Shown piece after piece: positions 1-7,207 of a stretch of 7,207 bases of DNA; position 1 is the stretch's first letter; every line of letters begins with the position of its first letter. The stretch is taken from IMG/VR virus record IMGVR_UViG_2703718769_000012. One strand, written 5' to 3'. The notes under the pieces are model-generated. The model was not told where the DNA came from, did no database searches, and worked only from the letters and a program-made list of their open reading frames with translations. Origin of the DNA: a virus (taxonomy: Duplodnaviria > Heunggongvirae > Uroviricota > Caudoviricetes). The position numbers and the translations under genes are program-made.

Positions 1-177
1 ATGATCTGGCAGCCTGAGTTCACAGATAAAACACTCTCCAGGAAAATCGGGGCGGTTCAAAATCTTAATCAGGAAAAGTATGCTAACCATTGTGGTGAAG
101 TGCAGGTTTGCTGCATGAATAGTTTTACAGCAGAAGCTAACTGCTGGCATGGCAAAACAAAGTGCGTAAGTGGATGA
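1..177 (+). CDS. Short Cys/His-rich ORF (58 codons from window position 1, TGA at 175-177), possibly the 3' end of a gene truncated by the window edge
   Basis: Open frame from base 1: MIWQPEFTDK...HCGEVQVCC...CWHGKTKCVSG. It lies just upstream of the lysis cassette, where lambdoid phages carry the late regulator Q, but I do not recognise the sequence as Q. The ATG at position 1 may be coincidental. Confidence 0.35.
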   Translation: MIWQPEFTDKTLSRKIGAVQNLNQEKYANHCGEVQVCCMNSFTAEANCWHGKTKCVSG

Positions 178-202
178 CTCCCACAAAAAGCACCACAATC
201 TC

Positions 203-226
203 AAACCCGCTCAGGCGGGTTTTTTA
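203..226 (+). terminator. Rho-independent terminator
   Basis: Hairpin CCCGC-tcag-GCGGG (206-219) followed by a run of six T (220-225), 26 nt after the upstream ORF stop. Could be the end of the upstream gene or a tR'-like late terminator. Confidence 0.7.
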
Positions 227-284
227 TTATCTGCTTTAAATATATTATTAAAATATAAAAAATACTTGTTACTAATAAAATCAA

Positions 285-455
285 TCAGGCTACAGCTTTA
301 AGATTTGTCTGGAATACTTTGTTGCAATGAGGGCAGATCAAAAGGGCACCTTTTTGTACTCTTGAAAAACTGTGTTCTGACTCTTGGGTGCAGTTTGGGC
401 AGGAACATTTAACGAGATAATTACGGCGTGATTTTGAGTTTTTACGTTCTGACAT
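285..455 (-). CDS. Small zinc-ribbon protein, 56 aa from the internal Met (the ORF track extends it to 506)
   Basis: Minus-strand ORF with a CxCxxC ... CxxC motif (KCSCPNCTQESEHSFSRVQKGALLICPHCNKVF). The internal ATG at 453-455 is preceded by AGGAAA with about 7 nt spacing; the ATG at 504-506 has no Shine-Dalgarno. A TTGAAA -35-like hexamer lies upstream on the minus strand. No homology search was done. Confidence 0.45.
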   Translation of the reverse strand: MSERKNSKSRRNYLVKCSCPNCTQESEHSFSRVQKGALLICPHCNKVFQTNLKAVA

Positions 456-674
456 AGGCTTTTCCTGTATAAATGGCCGTATACAGTACACTAAATATGA
501 AAACATTTCTCGTATTATTATTTTATATATGACTTTCTTTCAAAATAATTACCCACATTTTTAATGTGTATGTTTTTTTAGCGCCGTTGAGAACAACGTG
601 TGCTGTCAAAACTACCCCGTAGACTCCGATCTTTTCAAACATATTGCACCATCCGTGTACATCGGGGTGAGGAT

Positions 675-890
675 ATGAAATCAATGGATAAGTTAACAAC
701 AGGTGTTGCCTATGGCACATCGGCGGGTAATGCTGGTTTCTGGGCATTGCAGTTACTCGATAAAGTAACTCCGTCACAGTGGGCTGCAATCGGTGTGCTG
801 GGTAGCCTGGTTTTTGGCCTGCTGACGTATCTGACAAATCTTTATTTCAAGATTAAAGAAGACAGGCGTAAGGCTGCGAGAGGAGAGTAA
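675..890 (+). CDS. essQ: Phage-21-type class II holin (pinholin) with dual-start motif
   Basis: 71 aa, MKSMDK... gives two starts (Met1 and Met4, antiholin/holin). TMD1 is Gly/Ala-rich ([22 protein letters not shown]-like), TMD2 is [23 protein letters not shown], with a charged C-terminus [13 protein letters not shown]. Closely matches my memory of S21. The ORF track start at 600 is an upstream extension. Confidence 0.9.
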
Positions 891-894
891 TCCA

Positions 895-1202
895 ATGACT
901 CAAGACTATGAACTGGTTGTGAAAGGAGTCCGTAATTTTGAGAATAAAGTTACGGTAACTGTAGCCTTACAGGACAAAGAACGCTTTGACGGTGAAATTT
1001 TTGACCTGGATGTCGCCATGGACCGTGTTGAAGGAGCTGCGCTGGAGTTTTATGAGGCAGCAGCCAGAAGGAGCGTCCGGCAAGTCTTCCTGGAAGTAGC
1101 AGAAAAATTGTCAGAAAAAGTTGAGTCTTATCTGCAGCATCAGTACTCCTTTAAGATTGAAAATCCTGCCAATAAGCACGAGCGTCCTCATCATAAATAT
1201 CT

Positions 1203-1206
<4 letters not shown>
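895..1206 (+). CDS. ydfR: DUF1327-family prophage protein (YdfR-like), function unknown
   Basis: 103-aa ORF starting 4 nt after the holin stop, with its stop overlapping the endolysin start (ATGA at 1203-1206). Same length and position as ydfR in K-12 Qin (from memory). Confidence 0.75.
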
Positions 1207-2230
<1,024 letters not shown>

Positions 2231-2412
2231 GGTAATATTAAATCGGAACATTTACATCGCGGAATGTAAAATTTAAATAAAAAGGACTCTTCCATGAGCC
2301 AAAATTCCTGAAATCTTAAGGGTAAGATAAAAGGTCTTAATCAGAATGACACGTTTTATTAATAAATAAAGCTATTCTTTCATTGCTGTGTTTTTCTTTA
2401 CAAAAGTAATCC

Positions 2413-2592
2413 TTGCTATGGGTGGTTAATCATGCGTTAATGGTGTTCTGGTTTGTTACAAATTTATCTGAAGCAGTCATTGTTATAATTTTATTATTTG
2501 TACCTCTTGAGATTTCCTTGTTGGTTTTTCTCTCTGATATTTTTTTTCGGACCATTCTGCCCAAGGGCTAATTTCTTCAAAAGGTAATAATT
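2413..2592 (+). promoter_or_regulatory. cspI promoter and long cspA-type 5' leader with cold-box-like element
   Basis: Candidate sigma70 promoter: -35 TTGCTA (2413-2418), 17-bp spacer, TGn-extended -10 GTTAAT (2436-2441), predicted start near 2448 and leader about 145 nt. A second candidate is TGtTATAAT at 2481-2489. The leader start (GGTTTGTTACA...AAGCAGTC) resembles the cspA cold-box region, and AAGGTAATAATT precedes the ATG. Start sites are not determinable from sequence alone. Confidence 0.4.
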
Positions 2593-2805
2593 ATGTCTAA
2601 CAAAATGACTGGTTTAGTGAAATGGTTTAACCCTGAAAAAGGTTTTGGTTTCATCACGCCGAAAGATGGCAGCAAAGATGTGTTTGTCCATTTCTCAGCA
2701 ATTCAGAGCAACGATTTCAAAACATTAACTGAGAATCAGGAAGTTGAATTTGGTATTGAGAACGGACCTAAAGGTCCTGCCGCTGTTCATGTAGTGGCGC
2801 TTTGA
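2593..2805 (+). CDS. cspI: Cold-shock protein, CspA family (CspI)
   Basis: 70 aa, [38 protein letters not shown]...: cold-shock domain with RNP1 (KGFGFI) and RNP2 (VFVHF) motifs. Matches CspI as I recall it. AAGG Shine-Dalgarno 8 nt upstream. Confidence 0.95.
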
Positions 2806-2815
2806 GGTAGACAAT

Positions 2816-3004
2816 ATTACAAACCATATTCACTTTAGATGCCCGTGTTGTCATGGTTCCCAGTATAGAACATCATCTTTTGATGTTTCTGACATGAATC
2901 CTTTCGGGGCAAAATGTATCTTTTGTAAATCAATGATGATTACATTTGATAATATTTCACAATACTTAAATGCCAGCCGTCTGTCGTTGGATTTAAAAAA
3001 GTGA
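2816..3004 (+). CDS. Possible small zinc-ribbon protein with no canonical start codon (AUU start candidate, or frameshifted pseudogene)
   Basis: Frame open from 2795 to TGA 3002-3004, with CxxC-(21)-CxxC (RCPCCHGSQYRTSSFDVSDMNPFGAKCIFCKS). No in-frame ATG/GTG/TTG before the first Cys pair. GAGG (2804-2807, overlapping the cspI stop) sits 8 nt before an in-frame ATT at 2816, giving 62 aa. An ATG at 2839-2841 is out of frame by 1 nt across a CCC run. A terminator follows immediately. Confidence 0.3.
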   Translation: MTNHIHFRCPCCHGSQYRTSSFDVSDMNPFGAKCIFCKSMMITFDNISQYLNASRLSLDLKK

Positions 3005-3010
3005 AAATGA

Positions 3011-3032
3011 AGGCTCCTTCGGGAGCTTTTTT
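3011..3032 (+). terminator. Rho-independent terminator with UUCG tetraloop
   Basis: GGCTCC-ttcg-GGAGC hairpin (3012-3026) followed by TTTTTT (3027-3032), 7 nt after the zinc-ribbon ORF stop. Likely ends the cspI transcript. Confidence 0.75.
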
Positions 3033-3076
3033 GCTTGGTGTCTATTCGATGGATACTCACATACTACGGTAACATC

Positions 3077-3307
3077 ATGAAAAAAATCATAGTTTTTTTT
3101 AACTCTGAACCAGCAGTGGTAGTGCCAGCGATGACTGGAGTTAACACCATCATGCGTGAATATCCAAATGGCGAAAAAACACACCTTACTGTAATGGCCG
3201 CAGGGTTTCCATCTCTGACCGGAGATCATAAAGTCATTTATGTAGCCGCGGATCGACATGTTACTTCAGAAGAAATTCTGGAAGCAGCAATAAGGCTCTT
3301 GAGTTGA
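3077..3307 (+). CDS. ynfN: Small protein of the cold-shock cargo module (YnfN-like); start uncertain
   Basis: 76 codons from ATG 3077 (MKKIIVFFNSEPAVVVPAMTG...). Alternative starts are 3131 and 3152; the 3152 form is 51 aa, the length I recall for K-12 YnfN. Sits between cspI and gnsB as ynfN does in Qin. No strong Shine-Dalgarno for any start. Symbol rests on synteny and length, not recalled sequence. Confidence 0.5.
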   Translation: MKKIIVFFNSEPAVVVPAMTGVNTIMREYPNGEKTHLTVMAAGFPSLTGDHKVIYVAADRHVTSEEILEAAIRLLS

Positions 3308-3407
3308 TTTGATGCTATTGCATTGATAATTCAGGAAAATTCTCTTTGTCTGTTTGTGTAAAATTTAGACTATCGTATGTTGATTATTGCGATGTTTCAT
3401 CTTATCT

Positions 3408-3430
3408 TTTACACGTTTGCACCATATAAT
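3408..3430 (+). promoter_or_regulatory. Candidate promoter for gnsB
   Basis: Consensus -10 TATAAT at 3425-3430, about 48 nt upstream of the gnsB start. The -35 is poor (TTTACA at 3408-3413 is only 11 bp away). Sequence-only prediction. Confidence 0.3.
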
Positions 3431-3478
3431 CGACTTACTGTGTAACTGGAAAGTCATAACAGACTAAAAGAGGAAATG

Positions 3479-3652
3479 ATGAATATTGAAAACTTAAAAA
3501 CAAAAGCAGAAGCAGATATTTCTGAATATATAACAAAAAAAATTATTGAACTTAAGAAAAAGACCGGGAAAGAAGTTACCAGTATTCAGTTTACCGCACG
3601 GGAAAAAATGACGGGTCTTGAAAGCTATGATGTCAAGATTAATTTAATCTGA
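3479..3652 (+). CDS. gnsB: GnsA/GnsB-family small protein
   Basis: 57 aa, MNIENLKTKAEADISEYITKKIIELKKKTGKEVTSIQFTAREKMTGLESYDVKINLI. AAGAGGA Shine-Dalgarno 5-6 nt before the second of two adjacent ATGs. TAREKMTGLESYDVKI matches my memory of GnsA/GnsB. Not in the ORF track (under its length cutoff). Confidence 0.85.
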   Translation: MNIENLKTKAEADISEYITKKIIELKKKTGKEVTSIQFTAREKMTGLESYDVKINLI

Positions 3653-3678
3653 TGTATTCAATAATAAAATTTATCCAT

Positions 3679-3704
3679 AAACCTCGTTTTTACGGGGTTT
3701 TGTT
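3679..3704 (+). terminator. Rho-independent terminator downstream of gnsB
   Basis: Stem CCTCG/CGGGG with 6-nt loop (3682-3697), followed by TTTTGTT. Lies between the convergent genes gnsB and ydfO. Confidence 0.55.
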
Positions 3705-3766
3705 ATATTTGAATGGTTCCGAATATCTAAATCACAATTGTTGATGGTTTTTATTAAACCAATGCA

Positions 3767-3795
3767 GTCCGGCTCAGGAGTGAGAGAAGCCGGAC
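3767..3795 (-). terminator. Perfect 8-bp inverted repeat just downstream of ydfO (possible terminator or structured 3' end)
   Basis: GTCCGGCT (3767-3774) and AGCCGGAC (3788-3795) with a 13-nt loop, 9 nt after the ydfO stop. No clear U-tract on the minus strand, so the terminator role is uncertain. Confidence 0.35.
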
Positions 3796-3803
3796 GTTAT
3801 GGT

Positions 3804-4214
3804 TTAGCGTGGTAAGATCTGTGTAGTTTTCTGGATGCTTTCAGTAAATAGTAATGAATTATCAAAGGTATAGTAATATCTTTTTTGTTCGTGGATATTT
3901 GTAACCCACCGAAAAACTCCTGCTTTAGCAAGGTTTCTTCTGTATTCCTGAAATGTGATCTCTCTGGATTTCAGCTTATTAGAGGTCGTTTCTATAAGAT
4001 GCCTATCCTTTGAAAATTTGACAGACACAATGTTTTTTAGGCCCTTTAATAACACTGTATTATCATTTTTTAATACAATATGAACATTCTCTGTGGCTAA
4101 ATAGTAAATGTAATGTGAGACATTGTGACGTTTTAGCTCAGAATAAAACCATTGATAGTTTAAATCGTTTCGAACTTTATCAAATATTTGTTTAAAAATG
4201 ACTACCTGATCCAT
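3804..4214 (-). CDS. ydfO: DUF1398-family prophage protein (YdfO-like), function unknown
   Basis: 136 aa from the ATG at 4212-4214 ([23 protein letters not shown]...), which has GGAAGG 7 nt upstream. The ORF track start at 4229 adds 5 codons. Matches YdfO of Qin in length and, as I recall, sequence. Confidence 0.8.
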
Positions 4215-4439
4215 AGATAAACCTTCCATGTGATATGAGGGGGCGTAGTCTGCACGATTATCTAAATTGCTTCAATCTGGTCTGACCTGTTTTCTGAGCA
4301 ATTCAGTAATGTCACTCTTTTCTTTGTTTGCTTCAGAAGAAACTCTTTTTTCTGAGCACAGTCTCCGGCGGCAGGCTTCAATGACCCAGGCTGAGAAATT
4401 GATTATTTGACGTGGTTTGATGGCCTCCACGCACGTTGT

Positions 4440-4689
4440 GATATGTAGATGATAATCATTATCACTTTACGGGTCCTTTCCGGTGATCCGACAGGTTACG
4501 GGGCGGCGACCTCGCGGGTTTTCGCTATTTATGAAAATTTTCCGGTTTAAGGTGTTTCCGTTCTTCTTCGTCGTAACTTAATGTTTTTATTTAAAATACC
4601 CCCTGAAAAGAAAGGAAACGACAGGTGCTGAAAGCGGGCTTTTTGGCCTTTGTCGTTTCCTTTCTCTGTTTTTGTCCGTGGAATGAACA
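4440..4689. other. Lambda-type cohesive-end site cos (cosQ, cosN, cosB)
   Basis: Near-identical to my memory of the lambda genome ends. Right-end sequence ...GATGATAATCATTATCACTTTACGGGTCCTTTCCGGTGATCCGACAGGTTACG, then the 12-nt cohesive end GGGCGGCGACCT (4501-4512), then cosB with three CGTTTCC-core elements (about 4554-4561, 4614-4622 inverted, 4652-4660) corresponding to R3/R2/R1. Confidence 0.9.
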
Positions 4690-5235
4690 ATGGAAGTCAA
4701 CAAAAAGCAGCTGGCTGACATTTTCGGTGCGAGTATCCGTACCATTCAGAACTGGCAGGAACAGGGAATGCCCGTTCTGCGAGGCGGTGGCAAGGGTAAT
4801 GAGGTGCTTTATGATTCTGCCGCCGTCATAAAATGGTATGCCGAAAGGGATGCTGAAATTGAGAACGAAAAGCTGCGCCGGGAAGTTGAAGAACTGCGGC
4901 AGGCCAGCGAGACAGATCTCCAGCCAGGGACTATTGAGTACGAACGCCATCGACTTACGCGTGCGCAGGCCGACGCACAGGAGCTGAAAAATGCCAGAGA
5001 CTCCGCTGAAGTGGTGGAAACCGCATTCTGTACTTTCGTGCTGTCGCGGATCGCAGGTGAAATTGCCAGTATTCTCGACGGGATCCCCCTGTCGGTGCAG
5101 CGGCGTTTTCCGGAACTGGAAAACCGACATGTTGATTTCCTGAAACGGGATATCATCAAAGCCATGAACAAAGCAGCCGCGCTGGATGAACTGATAACGG
5201 GGCGCACTTTGACGGTGACCAGAGCGGCACGGTGA
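4690..5235 (+). CDS. nohA: Terminase small subunit, lambda Nu1 homologue with a replaced C-terminus
   Basis: 181 aa, MEVNKKQLADIFGASIRTIQNWQEQGMPVLRGGGKGNEVLYD... matches lambda Nu1 as I recall it through ...KAMNKAAALDELI. The last ~12 residues (TGRTLTVTRAAR) are read out of frame from J-derived DNA. Sits directly downstream of cosB. Confidence 0.9.
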   Translation: MEVNKKQLADIFGASIRTIQNWQEQGMPVLRGGGKGNEVLYDSAAVIKWYAERDAEIENEKLRREVEELRQASETDLQPGTIEYERHRLTRAQADAQELKNARDSAEVVETAFCTFVLSRIAGEIASILDGIPLSVQRRFPELENRHVDFLKRDIIKAMNKAAALDELITGRTLTVTRAAR

Positions 5236-5497
5236 ATGGTGTCACGCCGCCAGCAGTTCAGCACCTGACCGCAGAAGTCACCGCAGACAGCGGGGAATAC
5301 CAGGTGCTGGCGCGCTGGGACACGCCGAAGGTGGTGAAGGGGGTGAGCTTTATGCTTCGCCTGACCGTGGCAGCGGACGACGGCAGTGAGCGGTTGGTCA
5401 GCACGGCCCGGACGACGGAAACCACATATCGCTTCACGCAGCTGGCGCTGGGAAATTACAGGCTGACAGTCCGGGCGGTAAATGCATGGGGACAGCC
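5199..5497 (+). pseudogene. Internal fragment of tail host-specificity gene J (about 100 codons), no 5' or 3' part
   Basis: Frame beginning near 5199 reads ...GAHFDGDQSGT(V)NGVTPPAVQHLTAEVTADSGEYQVLARWDTPKVVKGVSF...[23 protein letters not shown], which I recognise as an internal stretch of lambda gpJ. It is out of frame with Nu1 upstream and stf downstream. The ORF-track start at 5232 is a GTG within this fragment. Confidence 0.7.
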
Positions 5498-5794
5498 GGT
5501 GCACATACCCATTCGATGACATTTGTTTCAGGTGGTTCCAGTGGTGCTCCGGGAAGTGGATCACCTGATTATTCTAAATACAGTGTTAACACTTCTTCTG
5601 CAGGCGCTCATACGCACTCTGTATCGGGTACTGCTGCAAGCGCAGGTGCACACGCACATACTGTCGGTATTGGTGCTCATACGCACTCCGTTGCGATTGG
5701 TTCACATGGACATACCATCACCGTTAACGCTGCTGGTAACGCGGAAAACACCGTCAAAAACATCGCATTTAACTATATTGTGAGGCTTGCGTAA
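5486..5794 (+). pseudogene. 3'-terminal fragment of side tail fibre gene stf (C-terminal ~100 codons)
   Basis: Ends ...[32 protein letters not shown], the lambda Stf C-terminus as I recall it, with GAHTHS/GAHAHT histidine repeats. Stop overlaps the tfa start (TAATG). The ATG at 5486 lies inside J-derived sequence and has no convincing Shine-Dalgarno. Confidence 0.75.
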
Positions 5795-6369
5795 TGGCAT
5801 TCAGAATGAGTGAACAACCACGGACCATAAAAATTTATAATCTGCTGGCCGGAACTAATGAATTTATTGGTGAAGGTGACGCATATATTCCGCCTCATAC
5901 AGGTCTGCCAGCAAACAGTACCGATATTGCACCGCCAGATATTCCGGCAGGCTTCGTGGCTGTTTTCAACAGTGATGAGGCATCGTGGCATCTCGTTGAA
6001 GATCATCGGGGTAAAACGGTTTATGACGTGGCATCAGGGGACGCGTTATTTATTTCTGAACTCGGTCCGTTACCGGAAAATGTTACCTGGTTATCGCCGG
6101 GAGGGGAATATCAGAAGTGGAACGGCACAGCCTGGGTGAAGGATACGGAAGCAGAAAAACTGTTCCGGATCCGGGAGGCGGAAGAAACAAAAAACAGCCT
6201 GATGCAGATAGCCAGTGAGCATATAGCGCCGCTTCAGGATGCTGTGGATCTGGAGATCGCAACGGAGGAAGAAACCTTGTTGCTGGAAGCCTGGAAAAAG
6301 TATCGGGTGTTGCTGAACCGTGTTGATACATCAACTGCACCGGATATTGAATGGCCAGCACTGCCGTAG
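5794..6369 (+). CDS. tfaQ: Tail fibre assembly protein (Tfa)
   Basis: 191 aa, [54 protein letters not shown]..., near-identical to lambda Tfa as I recall it. Coupled to the stf fragment by the TAATG overlap. Confidence 0.9.
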
Positions 6370-6466
6370 GGTAAAACATATAAATTCTATAATTAGATGT
6401 ATCTCTCCATTTACGGCAAGGAAGGGGGCTTGGAAGACGTAAAGCATCTCACACCGAGATTATTTT

Positions 6467-7057
6467 TTATATGTCAGGTGTCTGAAGTTTTGCTTTGGCT
6501 CTTAAAATGGTTTGCCGCGAGGTTTTGAATTCCCGGGCAATGGCACTTATACTTACACCTGACTTAATTCGTTCGAATACCACCTGTTTCTGTTCTTCAT
6601 TTAACACAGGTGGTCGACCAAAACGTTTCCCTGCGCCGCGGGCTCTTACTATCCCGGAATGAGTGCGTTCAAGTAAAAGGTCTCGTTCAAATTCAGCGAC
6701 TGCTGAAATTACGTGCATCATCATTTTTCCTGTTGGACTGGTCAGGTCAATGCCCCCCAATGCTAAGCAATGCACTCTGATACCTGTTTCGGTCAGTTGT
6801 TCCACTGTTTTCCTGATATCCATTGCATTACAACCAAGGCGATCCAGTTTTGTCACAATCAATTGATCACCACATTTCAGGCGAGCAAGCAACCGGTTAA
6901 AACCAGGACGCTCACTGGTTGCTGCTGAGCCGCTAATGTGTTCTTCGATTATTTGCTGAGGTTTGATTTTAAAACCTGCACTTTCGATTTCCCGGCGTTG
7001 ATTTTCGGTGGTCTGATCCAGCGTTGATATCCGACAGTAAGCAAAAATTCGAGACAT
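6467..7057 (-). CDS. pinQ: Site-specific DNA invertase, serine recombinase of the Hin/Gin/Cin/Pin family
   Basis: 196 aa. N-terminal catalytic motif Y-C-R-I-S-T-L-D-Q (catalytic Ser11), resolvase-type catalytic domain, C-terminal HTH ([20 protein letters not shown]). Appears intact. Lies next to tfa, as Pin genes do in e14, Rac and Qin. Confidence 0.93.
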
Positions 7058-7207
7058 AGTGAGACTCTATACGAAATTGGTGTTCATATCATAATGCATC
7101 TCAGAAAATAATTTTGATTATTTTTGTGCATATTTGTATGTACACGTTCGAAAATAAACGAATGCGTATGCAACCCCGTAACGGTGATGCTGCCAACTTA
7201 CTGATTT

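Follow-up and report, generated by a model that had tools for sequence, protein, structure and literature searches.

Cold-shock cargo genes between lysis cassette and cos in a Qin-type lambdoid prophage and their mosaic likeness to the chromosomal cspG locus

Between its lysis cassette and cos site the window, by which we mean the whole stretch of 7,207 nucleotides analysed, carries the annotated cspI-ynfQ-ynfR-ynfN-gnsB cold-shock cluster that is known from the right end of E. coli lambdoid prophages of the Qin type. The cargo is genuine, and of an ordinary kind that is already largely described in RefSeq and in the literature. The best explanation of the observations, in which we place considerable confidence, is that of a Qin-type cargo cluster residing in the moron slot between Rz and cos and expressed by the operon scheme proposed below.

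Results

Identity and distribution of the cluster

Over positions 2231-3710 the window shows 100% identity to Qin as carried by derivatives of E. coli K-12, including DH5alpha, and positions 58-4400 are 99.98% identical to MG1655. Gene order (cspI b1552, ynfQ b4724, ynfR b4749, ynfN b1551, gnsB b1550), terminators and the flanking rzpQ and ydfO are those of Qin in K-12, without any difference inside the cluster. Outside it the window departs from K-12 in its first 57 nt, in a 200-bp difference at about position 4400 that truncates ynfO, and from nohA onwards, where identity is 97.6-98.6%. Of 5426 complete E. coli genomes, 2152 contain the stretch 2231-3710, whereas among 50,697 phage records only 7 have the entire cluster. 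All elements named in the original prediction, which were cspI, a zinc-ribbon ORF, ynfN and gnsB, were found at the positions given for them, on the + strand and in the same orientation as the lysis genes (Table 1). The 21-codon ynfR had been overlooked in that prediction.

Table 1. Features of the cold-shock cluster and its surroundings (window coordinates)
Feature	Position	Strand	Description
Lysis cassette essQ-ydfR-rrrQ-rzpQ	675-2230	+	RefSeq annotation of identical DNA
rzpQ	1733-2230	+	Final gene of this cassette; annotated in RefSeq on identical DNA
Inferred sigma-70 promoter of cspI	2413-2441	+	-35 TTGCTA (2413-2418), 17-nt spacer, extended -10 TGcGTTAAT (2433-2441)
cspI leader	2447-2592	+	5' untranslated region of ~145 nt; homologue of the thermosensor in cspA mRNA; cold-box-like start TCTGGTTTGTTACAAA
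cspI	2593-2805	+	70-aa CspA-family cold-shock protein (RNA chaperone/antiterminator family); cspI in RefSeq
ynfQ	2816-3004	+	62-aa YmcF-family zinc-ribbon protein; ATT start; motifs CPCC...CIFC
ynfR	3007-3072	+	21-aa small protein; RefSeq annotation
Intrinsic terminator of the cspI-ynfQ bicistron	3010-3033	+	AAGGCUCC-UUCG-GGAGCUU, then U6
ynfN	3077-3307	+	76 aa; soluble, beta-sheet and helix
ynfN-gnsB spacer	3308-3478	+	171 nt, 31.6% GC; two candidate promoters
Candidate promoters in the spacer	3380-3408; 3425-3430	+	TTGATT-17-TATCTT; perfect TATAAT; sequence reading
gnsB	3479-3652	+	57-aa GnsA/GnsB-family protein; Pfam PF08178, E = 3.1e-35
Intrinsic terminator after gnsB	3679-3709	+	AAACCUCG-UUUU-ACGGGGUUU, then U-rich tail; terminator scan
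cosN	4501-4512	+	Exact lambda cohesive-end sequence GGGCGGCGACCT

Phage context and base composition

The cohesive-end sequence occurs as a single exact match, with 0.17 matches expected by chance at up to 2 mismatches, and lies about 180 nt upstream of nohA (4690-5235); the sequence flanking it resembles the left end of lambda. Since rzpQ ends and cosN begins on either side of the cluster, its placement between lysis cassette and cos is literally true. The GC content of 2231-3710 is 34.7%, lower than the 47.1% of the lysis cassette (600-2230) and the 48.7% of 4401-7207, and the predicted AT-rich block is in this respect distinct from its neighbouring phage genes. With 36.1% GC in 3711-4400, the AT-rich stretch runs on to about position 4400, taking in ydfO and the ynfO remnant as well.

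In lambda, the slot between Rz and cos is occupied by bor. With right-end morons of the bor type the cluster shares this position, a distinct base composition, terminators and, as published for phage Tritos (PMC9928086), expression in the lysogen that is independent of the lytic genes. Morons of that type consist of a single, constitutively expressed surface or virulence gene, whereas the Qin cluster is multi-gene and stress-regulated and carries an mRNA thermosensor leader. On the basis of lysogen transcriptomes, CspI and YnfN were classed as morons of Tritos, a plaque-forming siphovirus whose module is 99.8% identical to the cluster; they were expressed 93-fold and 27-fold, respectively, over prophage background in an LF82 lysogen, while GnsB is absent from that listing (PMC9928086). 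Location, base composition and this published precedent together support the view that the module is cargo in the late region.

The cspI promoter and leader

CspI is a cold-shock domain protein (Pfam CSD PF00313, E = 1.6e-31), and its top NCBIfam matches are CspG and CspA, with scores slightly under the equivalog cut-offs. That cspI would have a cspA-like leader was confirmed by Rfam, where RF01766 (cspA thermoregulator) matches 2447-2832 from model position 1 with 112.8 bits (E = 5e-29) against a gathering score of 78. The long leader homologous to the cspA thermosensor, the conserved -10 region and the cold box liken cspI to the cspA, cspB and cspG mRNAs, which are the Rho-dependent thermoswitches of RF01766. 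In the cspA model a terminator follows straight after the csp gene, but this terminal hairpin is missing at cspI and a second gene is translationally coupled instead.

The position of the cspI promoter is inferred from homology, conservation and the start of the Rfam match. The DNA upstream of it has 31% GC. A promoter block, CTTGC.ATG..TGGTTAA.CATGCGTTAATG, is nearly invariant among Qin, phage mEp460_ev081, Citrobacter pasteurii and C. murliniae, and ATCATGCGTTAAT of this region is found identically upstream of cspG. A consensus promoter scan of 2100-4500 gave 2 sites where 9.2 were expected, neither of them upstream of a gene, and it passed over the putative cspI promoter because this scores 8/12; the scan therefore lends no independent support to the idea that the module has its own promoters.

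A review places a putative Rho-utilisation (Rut) site of cspI upstream of the promoter and counts cspI among the cold-induced, Rho-controlled genes. Cold induction of cspI has been reported as well, according to secondary citations, and overproduction of CspI changes termination at a test terminator.

Coupling of ynfQ to cspI

The ATT start codon of ynfQ lies 10 nt past the cspI stop codon, which is itself overlapped by the Shine-Dalgarno sequence GAGG. No terminator separates the two genes, and they therefore form a bicistron that is closed by an intrinsic terminator. YnfQ matches PF23641 (YmcF-like) over its full length (E = 1.7e-32) and is 66.1% identical to YmcF, with invariant CPCC and CIFC motifs. 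The ymcF gene also starts with ATT, and in all 45 of the 46 csp-coupled ymcF homologues have an ATT or ATC start; a terminator-type hairpin is found 3' of 36 of these 46. In RefSeq the product of ynfQ is named 'cold shock small protein YmcF'. Cold induction of ynfQ has been reported, and a literature search found no primary report on the gene.

Terminators, ynfR and ynfN

A terminator scan returned 4 terminator-like sites where 1.1 were expected. The hairpin that closes the bicistron begins 6 nt 3' of the stop codon of ynfQ (fold energy -13 kcal/mol, z = -2.0), and the one after gnsB (-11 kcal/mol, z = -2.5) marks the right end of the + strand cluster. Of the predicted own promoters and terminators, it is thus the terminators that stand, while the cspI promoter is deduced from homology and conservation and that of gnsB is a candidate.

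The ynfR ORF begins 3 nt ahead of the first hairpin and continues through it, and any mRNA that encodes it would have to come from read-through. Tagged YnfR (YnfR-SPA) is strongly raised on cold shock (PMC6001520). For YnfN no family was found in Pfam or NCBIfam, and a fold search gave no match. The MG1655 annotation of ynfN covers its last 51 codons only, from position 3152.

gnsB and its spacer

The first of the two candidate promoters in the spacer is common to C. pasteurii as TTGAT(T/A)-17-TATCTT, whereas the TATAAT is not, and the consensus scan reported neither. According to a preprint (bioRxiv 10.1101/2024.03.27.586906, with reference to Sugai et al. 2001), overexpression of gnsA or gnsB increases unsaturated fatty acids and rescues cold-sensitive mutants; the preprint also describes gnsA and gnsB clones that rescue low-temperature growth defects, with gnsA expression restoring the proportions of 16:1 and 18:1 fatty acids. 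Our literature search turned up no report of gnsB being induced by cold.

Comparison with the chromosomal cspG locus

The order of the module was predicted to parallel that of cspG-ymcF-ymcE-gnsA, and this was borne out, with true paralogues at three of the four positions (amino-acid identities of 78.6% for CspI/CspG, 66.1% for YnfQ/YmcF and 64.9% for GnsB/GnsA). The cspH-cspG-ymcF-ymcE-gnsA locus of Escherichia, also associated with cold shock, shows the same succession: csp is followed after 10 nt by a zinc-ribbon gene with an ATT start, and then come a terminator hairpin, a small ORF and gns. DNA homology extends from the cspI start through the hairpin after ynfQ, whose counterpart 3' of ymcF has altered stem bases, and resumes about 20 nt before gnsB.

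The middle of the two loci differs. In permissive BLASTP searches neither YnfN (best E = 8) nor YnfR showed similarity to YmcE, which forms its own Pfam family (PF15939), while YnfN has none. The alignment proposed in the original prediction thus succeeds for csp, ymcF and gns and fails for YnfN against YmcE, which means that one of the two intervening small ORFs lacks the likeness on which that prediction had made itself depend. Further differences are that ymcE overlaps both of its neighbours, that the 171-nt spacer has no equivalent before gnsA, and that the locus lies between gfcA and yccM without flanking phage genes.

Compared with Qin, the cspG locus is a composite. Its homology to Qin comes in exactly three blocks. 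The divergent cspH and, with it, the promoter, leader and first 115 nt of cspG match the cspF-cspB island of Qin (76% over 635 nt), whereas the right part matches cspI-ynfQ. The switch lies inside the first 115 nt of csp; informative sites favour cspB by 10:5 in the first 72 nt and cspI by 29:13 thereafter. A cspH-csp-ymcF arrangement also exists in Citrobacter sedlakii.

Among 80 ymcF-family loci, the conserved unit is the csp-ymcF pair, to which ynfN and gns come and go. Some loci have just the pair, others add ynfN or gns to it, and others again have all of these; the suggestion that the whole unit from csp to gns had moved as a block is not supported in this fixed form.

Discussion

Operon scheme

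Published expression data link the genes of the cluster. Induction by AZT is 6.5-fold for cspI, 5.9-fold for ynfQ and 5.8-fold for ynfN, with an SspA dependence of 38-, 42- and 51-fold, and the expression ratios of cspI and ynfN are near-identical over four growth-phase comparisons. Deletion of cspI leads to loss in long-term stationary-phase competition.

In the scheme we propose, the leader would hold cspI output low at 37 C through an unstable or closed mRNA, possibly with the help of Rho, and the mRNA would be stabilised and translated after a shift to cold, and also in long-term stationary phase and under replication stress. The terminator behind ynfQ may be leaky; since it lies so close to the ynfQ stop codon, a terminating or re-initiating ribosome, or antitermination by Csp, could suppress it. 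Read-through would then bring ynfR and ynfN to roughly one third of what cspI reaches, and transcription of gnsB could stem from polymerases that read on past ynfN or from a weak dedicated promoter. Thus the predicted self-containment is only partly true, as cspI-ynfQ-ynfR-ynfN would act as one leaky operon. During lytic growth, the cluster would presumably be transcribed by Q-antiterminated late transcription as well. If GnsB increases the share of unsaturated fatty acids in the membrane, a lysogen with this regulation and read-through would gain RNA-chaperone capacity and probably membrane-fluidity capacity. A benefit to the host at low temperature may be suggested by analogy, from overexpression and paralogue studies.

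Origin of the cluster

The cluster appears to be a mosaic, in which an old csp-ymcF core, widespread in Enterobacteriaceae, would have been joined by ynfN and gns as separable pieces. One may speculate that the chromosomal cspH-cspG-ymcF-ymcE-gnsA locus is a domesticated remnant of a Qin-type prophage rather than the source of the phage module, a possibility that we hold tentatively and consider somewhat doubtful. Recombination between two phage csp paralogues, a cspB-like one upstream of the lysis genes and a cspI-like one downstream of them, would in that case have deleted ynfU and the whole lysis cassette, and fused the promoter, leader and 5' end of cspF-cspB to the 3' end of cspI, followed by ynfQ and gns. 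The three blocks of homology and the switch within csp fit such an event. The reverse history, in which an ancestral single island was split by insertion of a lysis cassette, could also have taken place.

It seems unlikely that a single ancestral module of four genes was transferred whole between the cspG locus and phage, to leave the two loci as colinear copies of it. The shared order and orientation, the three paralogous positions and the homologous hairpins after ymcF and ynfQ are what such a transfer would leave, and the complete csp-ymcF-ynfN-gns block found among non-phage genes in C. murliniae, outside any recognisable prophage, indicates that four genes can relocate together. These likenesses are outweighed by the unrelated YnfN and YmcE, by DNA that is unalignable from the hairpin to gns, by the independent assortment of ynfN and gns relative to csp-ymcF, and by a cspG promoter, leader and 5' end that match cspB and not cspI. 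The dS values of the three paralogous pairs are 1.4, 2.0 and saturated, and with synonymous sites saturated or nearly so in all three an equal age cannot be shown.

Benefit to phage or host

Rather less probable still is that the cluster mainly serves the phage, with CspI and GnsB, transcribed along with the late operon, aiding late expression, lysis or assembly on infection or induction at low temperature. The cluster is co-oriented with the late genes downstream of Q and pR', and from lambda biology a Q-modified polymerase would be expected to pass both terminators. It is retained in the plaque-forming phages Tritos, mEp460_ev081 and 2H10, at the right genome end in the first two as in Qin. 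Immediately 5' of the lysis genes there is another csp island, cspF-cspB; mEp460_ev081 has the cluster without that island. Lambda itself is not known to carry the cluster genes, which speaks against a role for the phage. Service to the phage is difficult to reconcile with expression far over prophage background in an uninduced lysogen, with intact clusters in Qin-type prophages that lack most virion genes (in the window nohA runs straight into a tail-fibre fragment), and with the presence of the same genes in non-phage contexts.

The notion that GnsB is a toxin with YnfN as antitoxin, modelled on the pairing proposed for ymcE and gnsA, is highly improbable and was rejected for lack of homology and of constant co-occurrence: the name 'addiction module toxin' in RefSeq/Pfam, the Pfam names GnsAB_toxin and YmcE_antitoxin, a modelling paper that lists ymcE-gnsA among E. 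coli type II systems and the place of ynfN directly upstream of gnsB speak for it, but YnfN has no homology to YmcE by BLASTP, Pfam or NCBIfam, the 171-nt gap leaves no overlap between the genes, gns occurs without ynfN (locus L015) and ynfN without gns (loci L016, L036, L039, L040 and others), gnsA and gnsB clones rescue growth instead of killing, and YnfN is strongly expressed in the Tritos lysogen, for which GnsB is unlisted. No test of GnsB toxicity was found in the literature.

Significance

With the reading of the region as a cargo cluster of the Qin-type prophage, RefSeq and the literature already cover the genes and the families to which they belong, as well as the induction of most of them by cold or stress and their standing as morons in a live phage. 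The analysis opens no new question and has little import beyond bookkeeping. What is added here is the anatomy of the csp-ymcF bicistron, with its conserved AUU start and a putatively leaky terminator that is crossed by a small ORF, and the demonstration that the parallel to the cspG locus is real but mosaic. These results give a hint that rearrangement inside csp connects a 'core' host cold-shock locus with the csp islands of the prophage, and they may be of use to studies of how prophage cargo feeds the host cold-shock regulon.

Results

Judged from its ORF listing and from database comparison, the window comes from a defective E. coli prophage of the lambdoid Qin type. Its sequence starts just 3′ of cspB and runs through ynfU (minus strand), essQ-ydfR-rrrQ-rzpQ, the cluster cspI-ynfQ-ynfR-ynfN-gnsB, ydfO (minus strand) and a ynfO remnant to cos, nohA, a stfQ fragment, tfaQ and pinQ (minus strand). 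Positions 58-4400 are 99.98% identical to K-12 MG1655 and DH5alpha and the remainder 97.6-98.6%, with a 200-bp difference near 4400. These missing 200 bp, together with a divergent nohA-stfQ junction, indicate a close relative of K-12 and not K-12 proper. Many E. coli strains carry 2231-3710 with 100% identity. Among 5426 complete E. coli genomes, 2095 contain the interval at a coverage of at least 80%, and 2152 show some match. The GC content of the interval is 34.7%, whereas the lysis cassette has 47.1% and the sequence past 4400 has 48.7%, in agreement with the AT-richness originally described, and the AT-rich tract extends beyond the interval to about 4400. The position assumed for cos was also right, as the exact lambda cohesive end GGGCGGCGACCT lies about 180 nt 5′ of nohA, in flanking sequence which we take to be lambda-like. 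This lambda-type cos is retained although nohA joins directly onto a tail-fibre fragment.

Features of the cold-shock cluster and its surroundings (window coordinates)
Feature	Position	Strand	Remarks
ynfU	285-455	-	56-aa zinc-binding small protein, between cspB and essQ
Putative cspI promoter	2413-2441		TTGCTA-17-TGcGTTAAT
Rfam cspA thermoregulator	2447-2832		full-length match, 112.8 bits (gathering score 78)
cspI	2593-2805		
ynfQ	2816-3004		62-codon zinc-ribbon gene, ATT start
ynfR	3007-3072		21 codons; annotated by RefSeq
First intrinsic terminator	3010-3033		
ynfN	3077-3307		
gnsB	3479-3652		
Second intrinsic terminator	3679-3709		
Strong hairpin	3766-3797	-	-20 kcal/mol, z = -4.9; between gnsB terminator and ydfO stop
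200 bp missing relative to K-12	~4397-4400		includes ynfO 5′ end
cosN	4501-4512		
nohA-stfQ junction	5202-5606		divergent from K-12
IS009	6137-6335		full-length Rfam match, 221.5 bits; within tail-fibre assembly gene tfaQ

The observation itself is confirmed, since cspI, its leader, the zinc-ribbon ORF, ynfN and gnsB were all recovered by ORF list, sequence and protein comparison. Owing to the ATT start of ynfQ, a mechanical ORF list gives just a 36-codon ATG fragment of this gene. The leader is cspA-like as proposed, and the cluster has terminators of its own. Its own promoters are less evident: a consensus scan of the cluster region gave no relevant site, the gnsB promoter is a candidate only, and that of cspI we infer because the Rfam model starts at 2447 and the block hardly varies between copies from Escherichia and Citrobacter, and is partly common to cspG. 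The strong hairpin beyond gnsB probably terminates the convergent ydfO transcript.

Homologues of YnfN are limited to Enterobacteriaceae and the protein has no Pfam family. It is annotated with 51 aa in MG1655 and with 76 aa in other RefSeq records. Conservation starts at the first residues, the first 25 (MKKxxVFFN...) being kept in homologues down to 52% identity, and the 76-residue form is therefore probably the real one, the 51-codon annotation seemingly being truncated. The predicted fold is confident (pLDDT 86.7) and comprises five strands plus a C-terminal helix; it has no significant neighbour in the PDB.

Discussion

Seven phage records contain the entire interval, among them Tritos (99.8%), PhiR42_1 (100%), 2H10, HannyBb and mEp460_ev081 (about 92%), and in Tritos and mEp460_ev081, whose annotation was inspected, the cluster lies behind the lysis genes at the right genome end. 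Tritos, a siphovirus of strain LF82, forms plaques, and transcriptomes of the LF82 lysogen led to CspI, YnfN and CspB being called morons at 93-, 27- and 59-fold over prophage background, GnsB being absent from that list (PMC9928086). The moron reading is thus correct and already published. With the K-12 genes annotated and cold or stress induction of cspI, ynfQ, ynfR and ynfN reported, the cluster is a known feature. A role that benefits the phage during cold lytic growth would be compatible with its being a moron but is less likely.

Csp proteins are antiterminators. Overproduction of CspI changed termination at a test terminator (PMC9765468), and cspI is listed with the cold-induced Rho-controlled genes (PMC12360218). 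In the Rfam alignment the terminator hairpin of cspA itself is absent after cspI, and ynfQ comes next with a coupled non-AUG start. As the first terminator begins just 6 nt past the ynfQ stop, ribosomes could modulate termination there. The ynfR ORF begins 3 nt before this hairpin and extends through it, so its mRNA would have to be made by read-through, and tagged YnfR is strongly cold-induced (PMC6001520). A leaky terminator would also fit the drop from CspI to YnfN in LF82. In long-term stationary phase the cspI ratios (2.61/5.82/3.76/2.01) are tracked by ynfN (2.01/5.59/3.92/2.16; PMC7406224), and cspI, ynfQ and ynfN respond similarly to AZT and SspA (PMC11228462). No measurement of gnsB induction was found in the literature. 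A preprint citing Sugai et al. 2001 attributes more unsaturated fatty acids and rescue of cold-sensitive growth to GnsA/GnsB overproduction (bioRxiv 10.1101/2024.03.27.586906), which provides a rationale for the linkage of gns to csp.

The original prediction drew a parallel with chromosomal cspG-ymcF-ymcE-gnsA and suggested that the csp-small-gene-gns unit had moved as one block, an interpretation that is partly supported. Comparison with the MG1655 cspG locus at DNA and protein level gave amino-acid identities of 78.6% (CspI/CspG), 66.1% (YnfQ/YmcF) and 64.9% (GnsB/GnsA), and exactly three blocks of DNA homology to Qin. The first covers the initial 115 nt of cspG together with cspH and the intergenic region, which match Qin's other island, cspF-cspB (76% over 635 nt); the second pairs cspG and on to nt 137 of ymcF with cspI-ynfQ (74%), and is extended by global alignment as far as a homologous terminator hairpin; the third joins gnsA and its ribosome-binding site to gnsB (73%). 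The parallel in gene order is thus real, and the first small ORF is homologous, but the second is a different cassette: unlike the Qin cluster, the chromosomal locus has ymcE in the middle, YnfN and YmcE show no similarity (best E = 8), and YnfN is clearly not a YmcE-type peptide. Synonymous divergence of the three paralogue pairs is saturated or nearly so (dS 1.4, 2.0 and saturated; dN 0.14-0.23), which indicates old divergence under purifying selection, with relative ages beyond resolution.

Transfer as a single block is further weakened by independent assortment. A scan for YmcF/YnfQ relatives, with one genome per species, gave 151 loci, of which 80 were examined. The constant unit is csp followed after 10-13 nt by a ymcF-family gene, present in Escherichia, Citrobacter, Salmonella, Kosakonia, Scandinavium, Siccibacter and others, often amid ordinary chromosomal genes (an epimerase and a LysR regulator in Salmonella enterica). 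To this pair ynfN, gns, both or neither are added. The complete four-gene block occurs 3′ of lysis genes in several Citrobacter prophages and among non-phage genes in C. murliniae, and Citrobacter sp. NCU1 joins a ymcE-type spacer to a GnsB-like gns. The ymcF-family start is ATT or ATC in 45 of 46 csp-coupled loci, with a Shine-Dalgarno sequence overlapping the csp stop codon, and 36 of the 46 have a terminator-like hairpin no more than 70 nt further on. Among loci for which no csp was detected in the 25 nt upstream, 23 use ATG and 11 use ATT. That the non-AUG start and the overlap go with csp coupling suggests coupled re-initiation setting a fixed Csp:YmcF ratio. A toxin-antitoxin reading of GnsB and YnfN fails, as neither homology nor gene spacing nor co-occurrence supports it.

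The module is therefore a mosaic on an old bicistronic core and not a rigid four-gene unit. The cspG locus is itself composite relative to Qin, which again speaks against a single block: of the informative sites within csp, those in the first 72 nt favour cspB by 10:5 and the later ones cspI by 29:13. In the K-12 cspH-gnsA locus (L002, 3464-4741), the cspH-cspG half resembles the cspF-cspB island of Qin (L006/L001) and the cspG-ymcF...gnsA half resembles cspI-ynfQ...gnsB. Given the switch within the first 115 nt of csp, this locus looks like Qin minus ynfU and the lysis cassette, and may be a prophage remnant from csp-csp recombination that deleted the lysis cassette. YnfU-like genes lie divergently just 5′ of csp-ymcF pairs in many genera besides, among them Scandinavium, Pseudescherichia and several Citrobacter, so ynfU may be part of the same cold-shock island. 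Beside a chromosomal csp pair, two C. gillenii strains carry appA and gnsB, and the corresponding site in Citrobacter sp. FP75 (L011) holds the quinolone-resistance gene qnrB89 (PMC7996913); with such different genes in the csp-flanking position, the csp-ymcF neighbourhood may be a site of cargo swapping.
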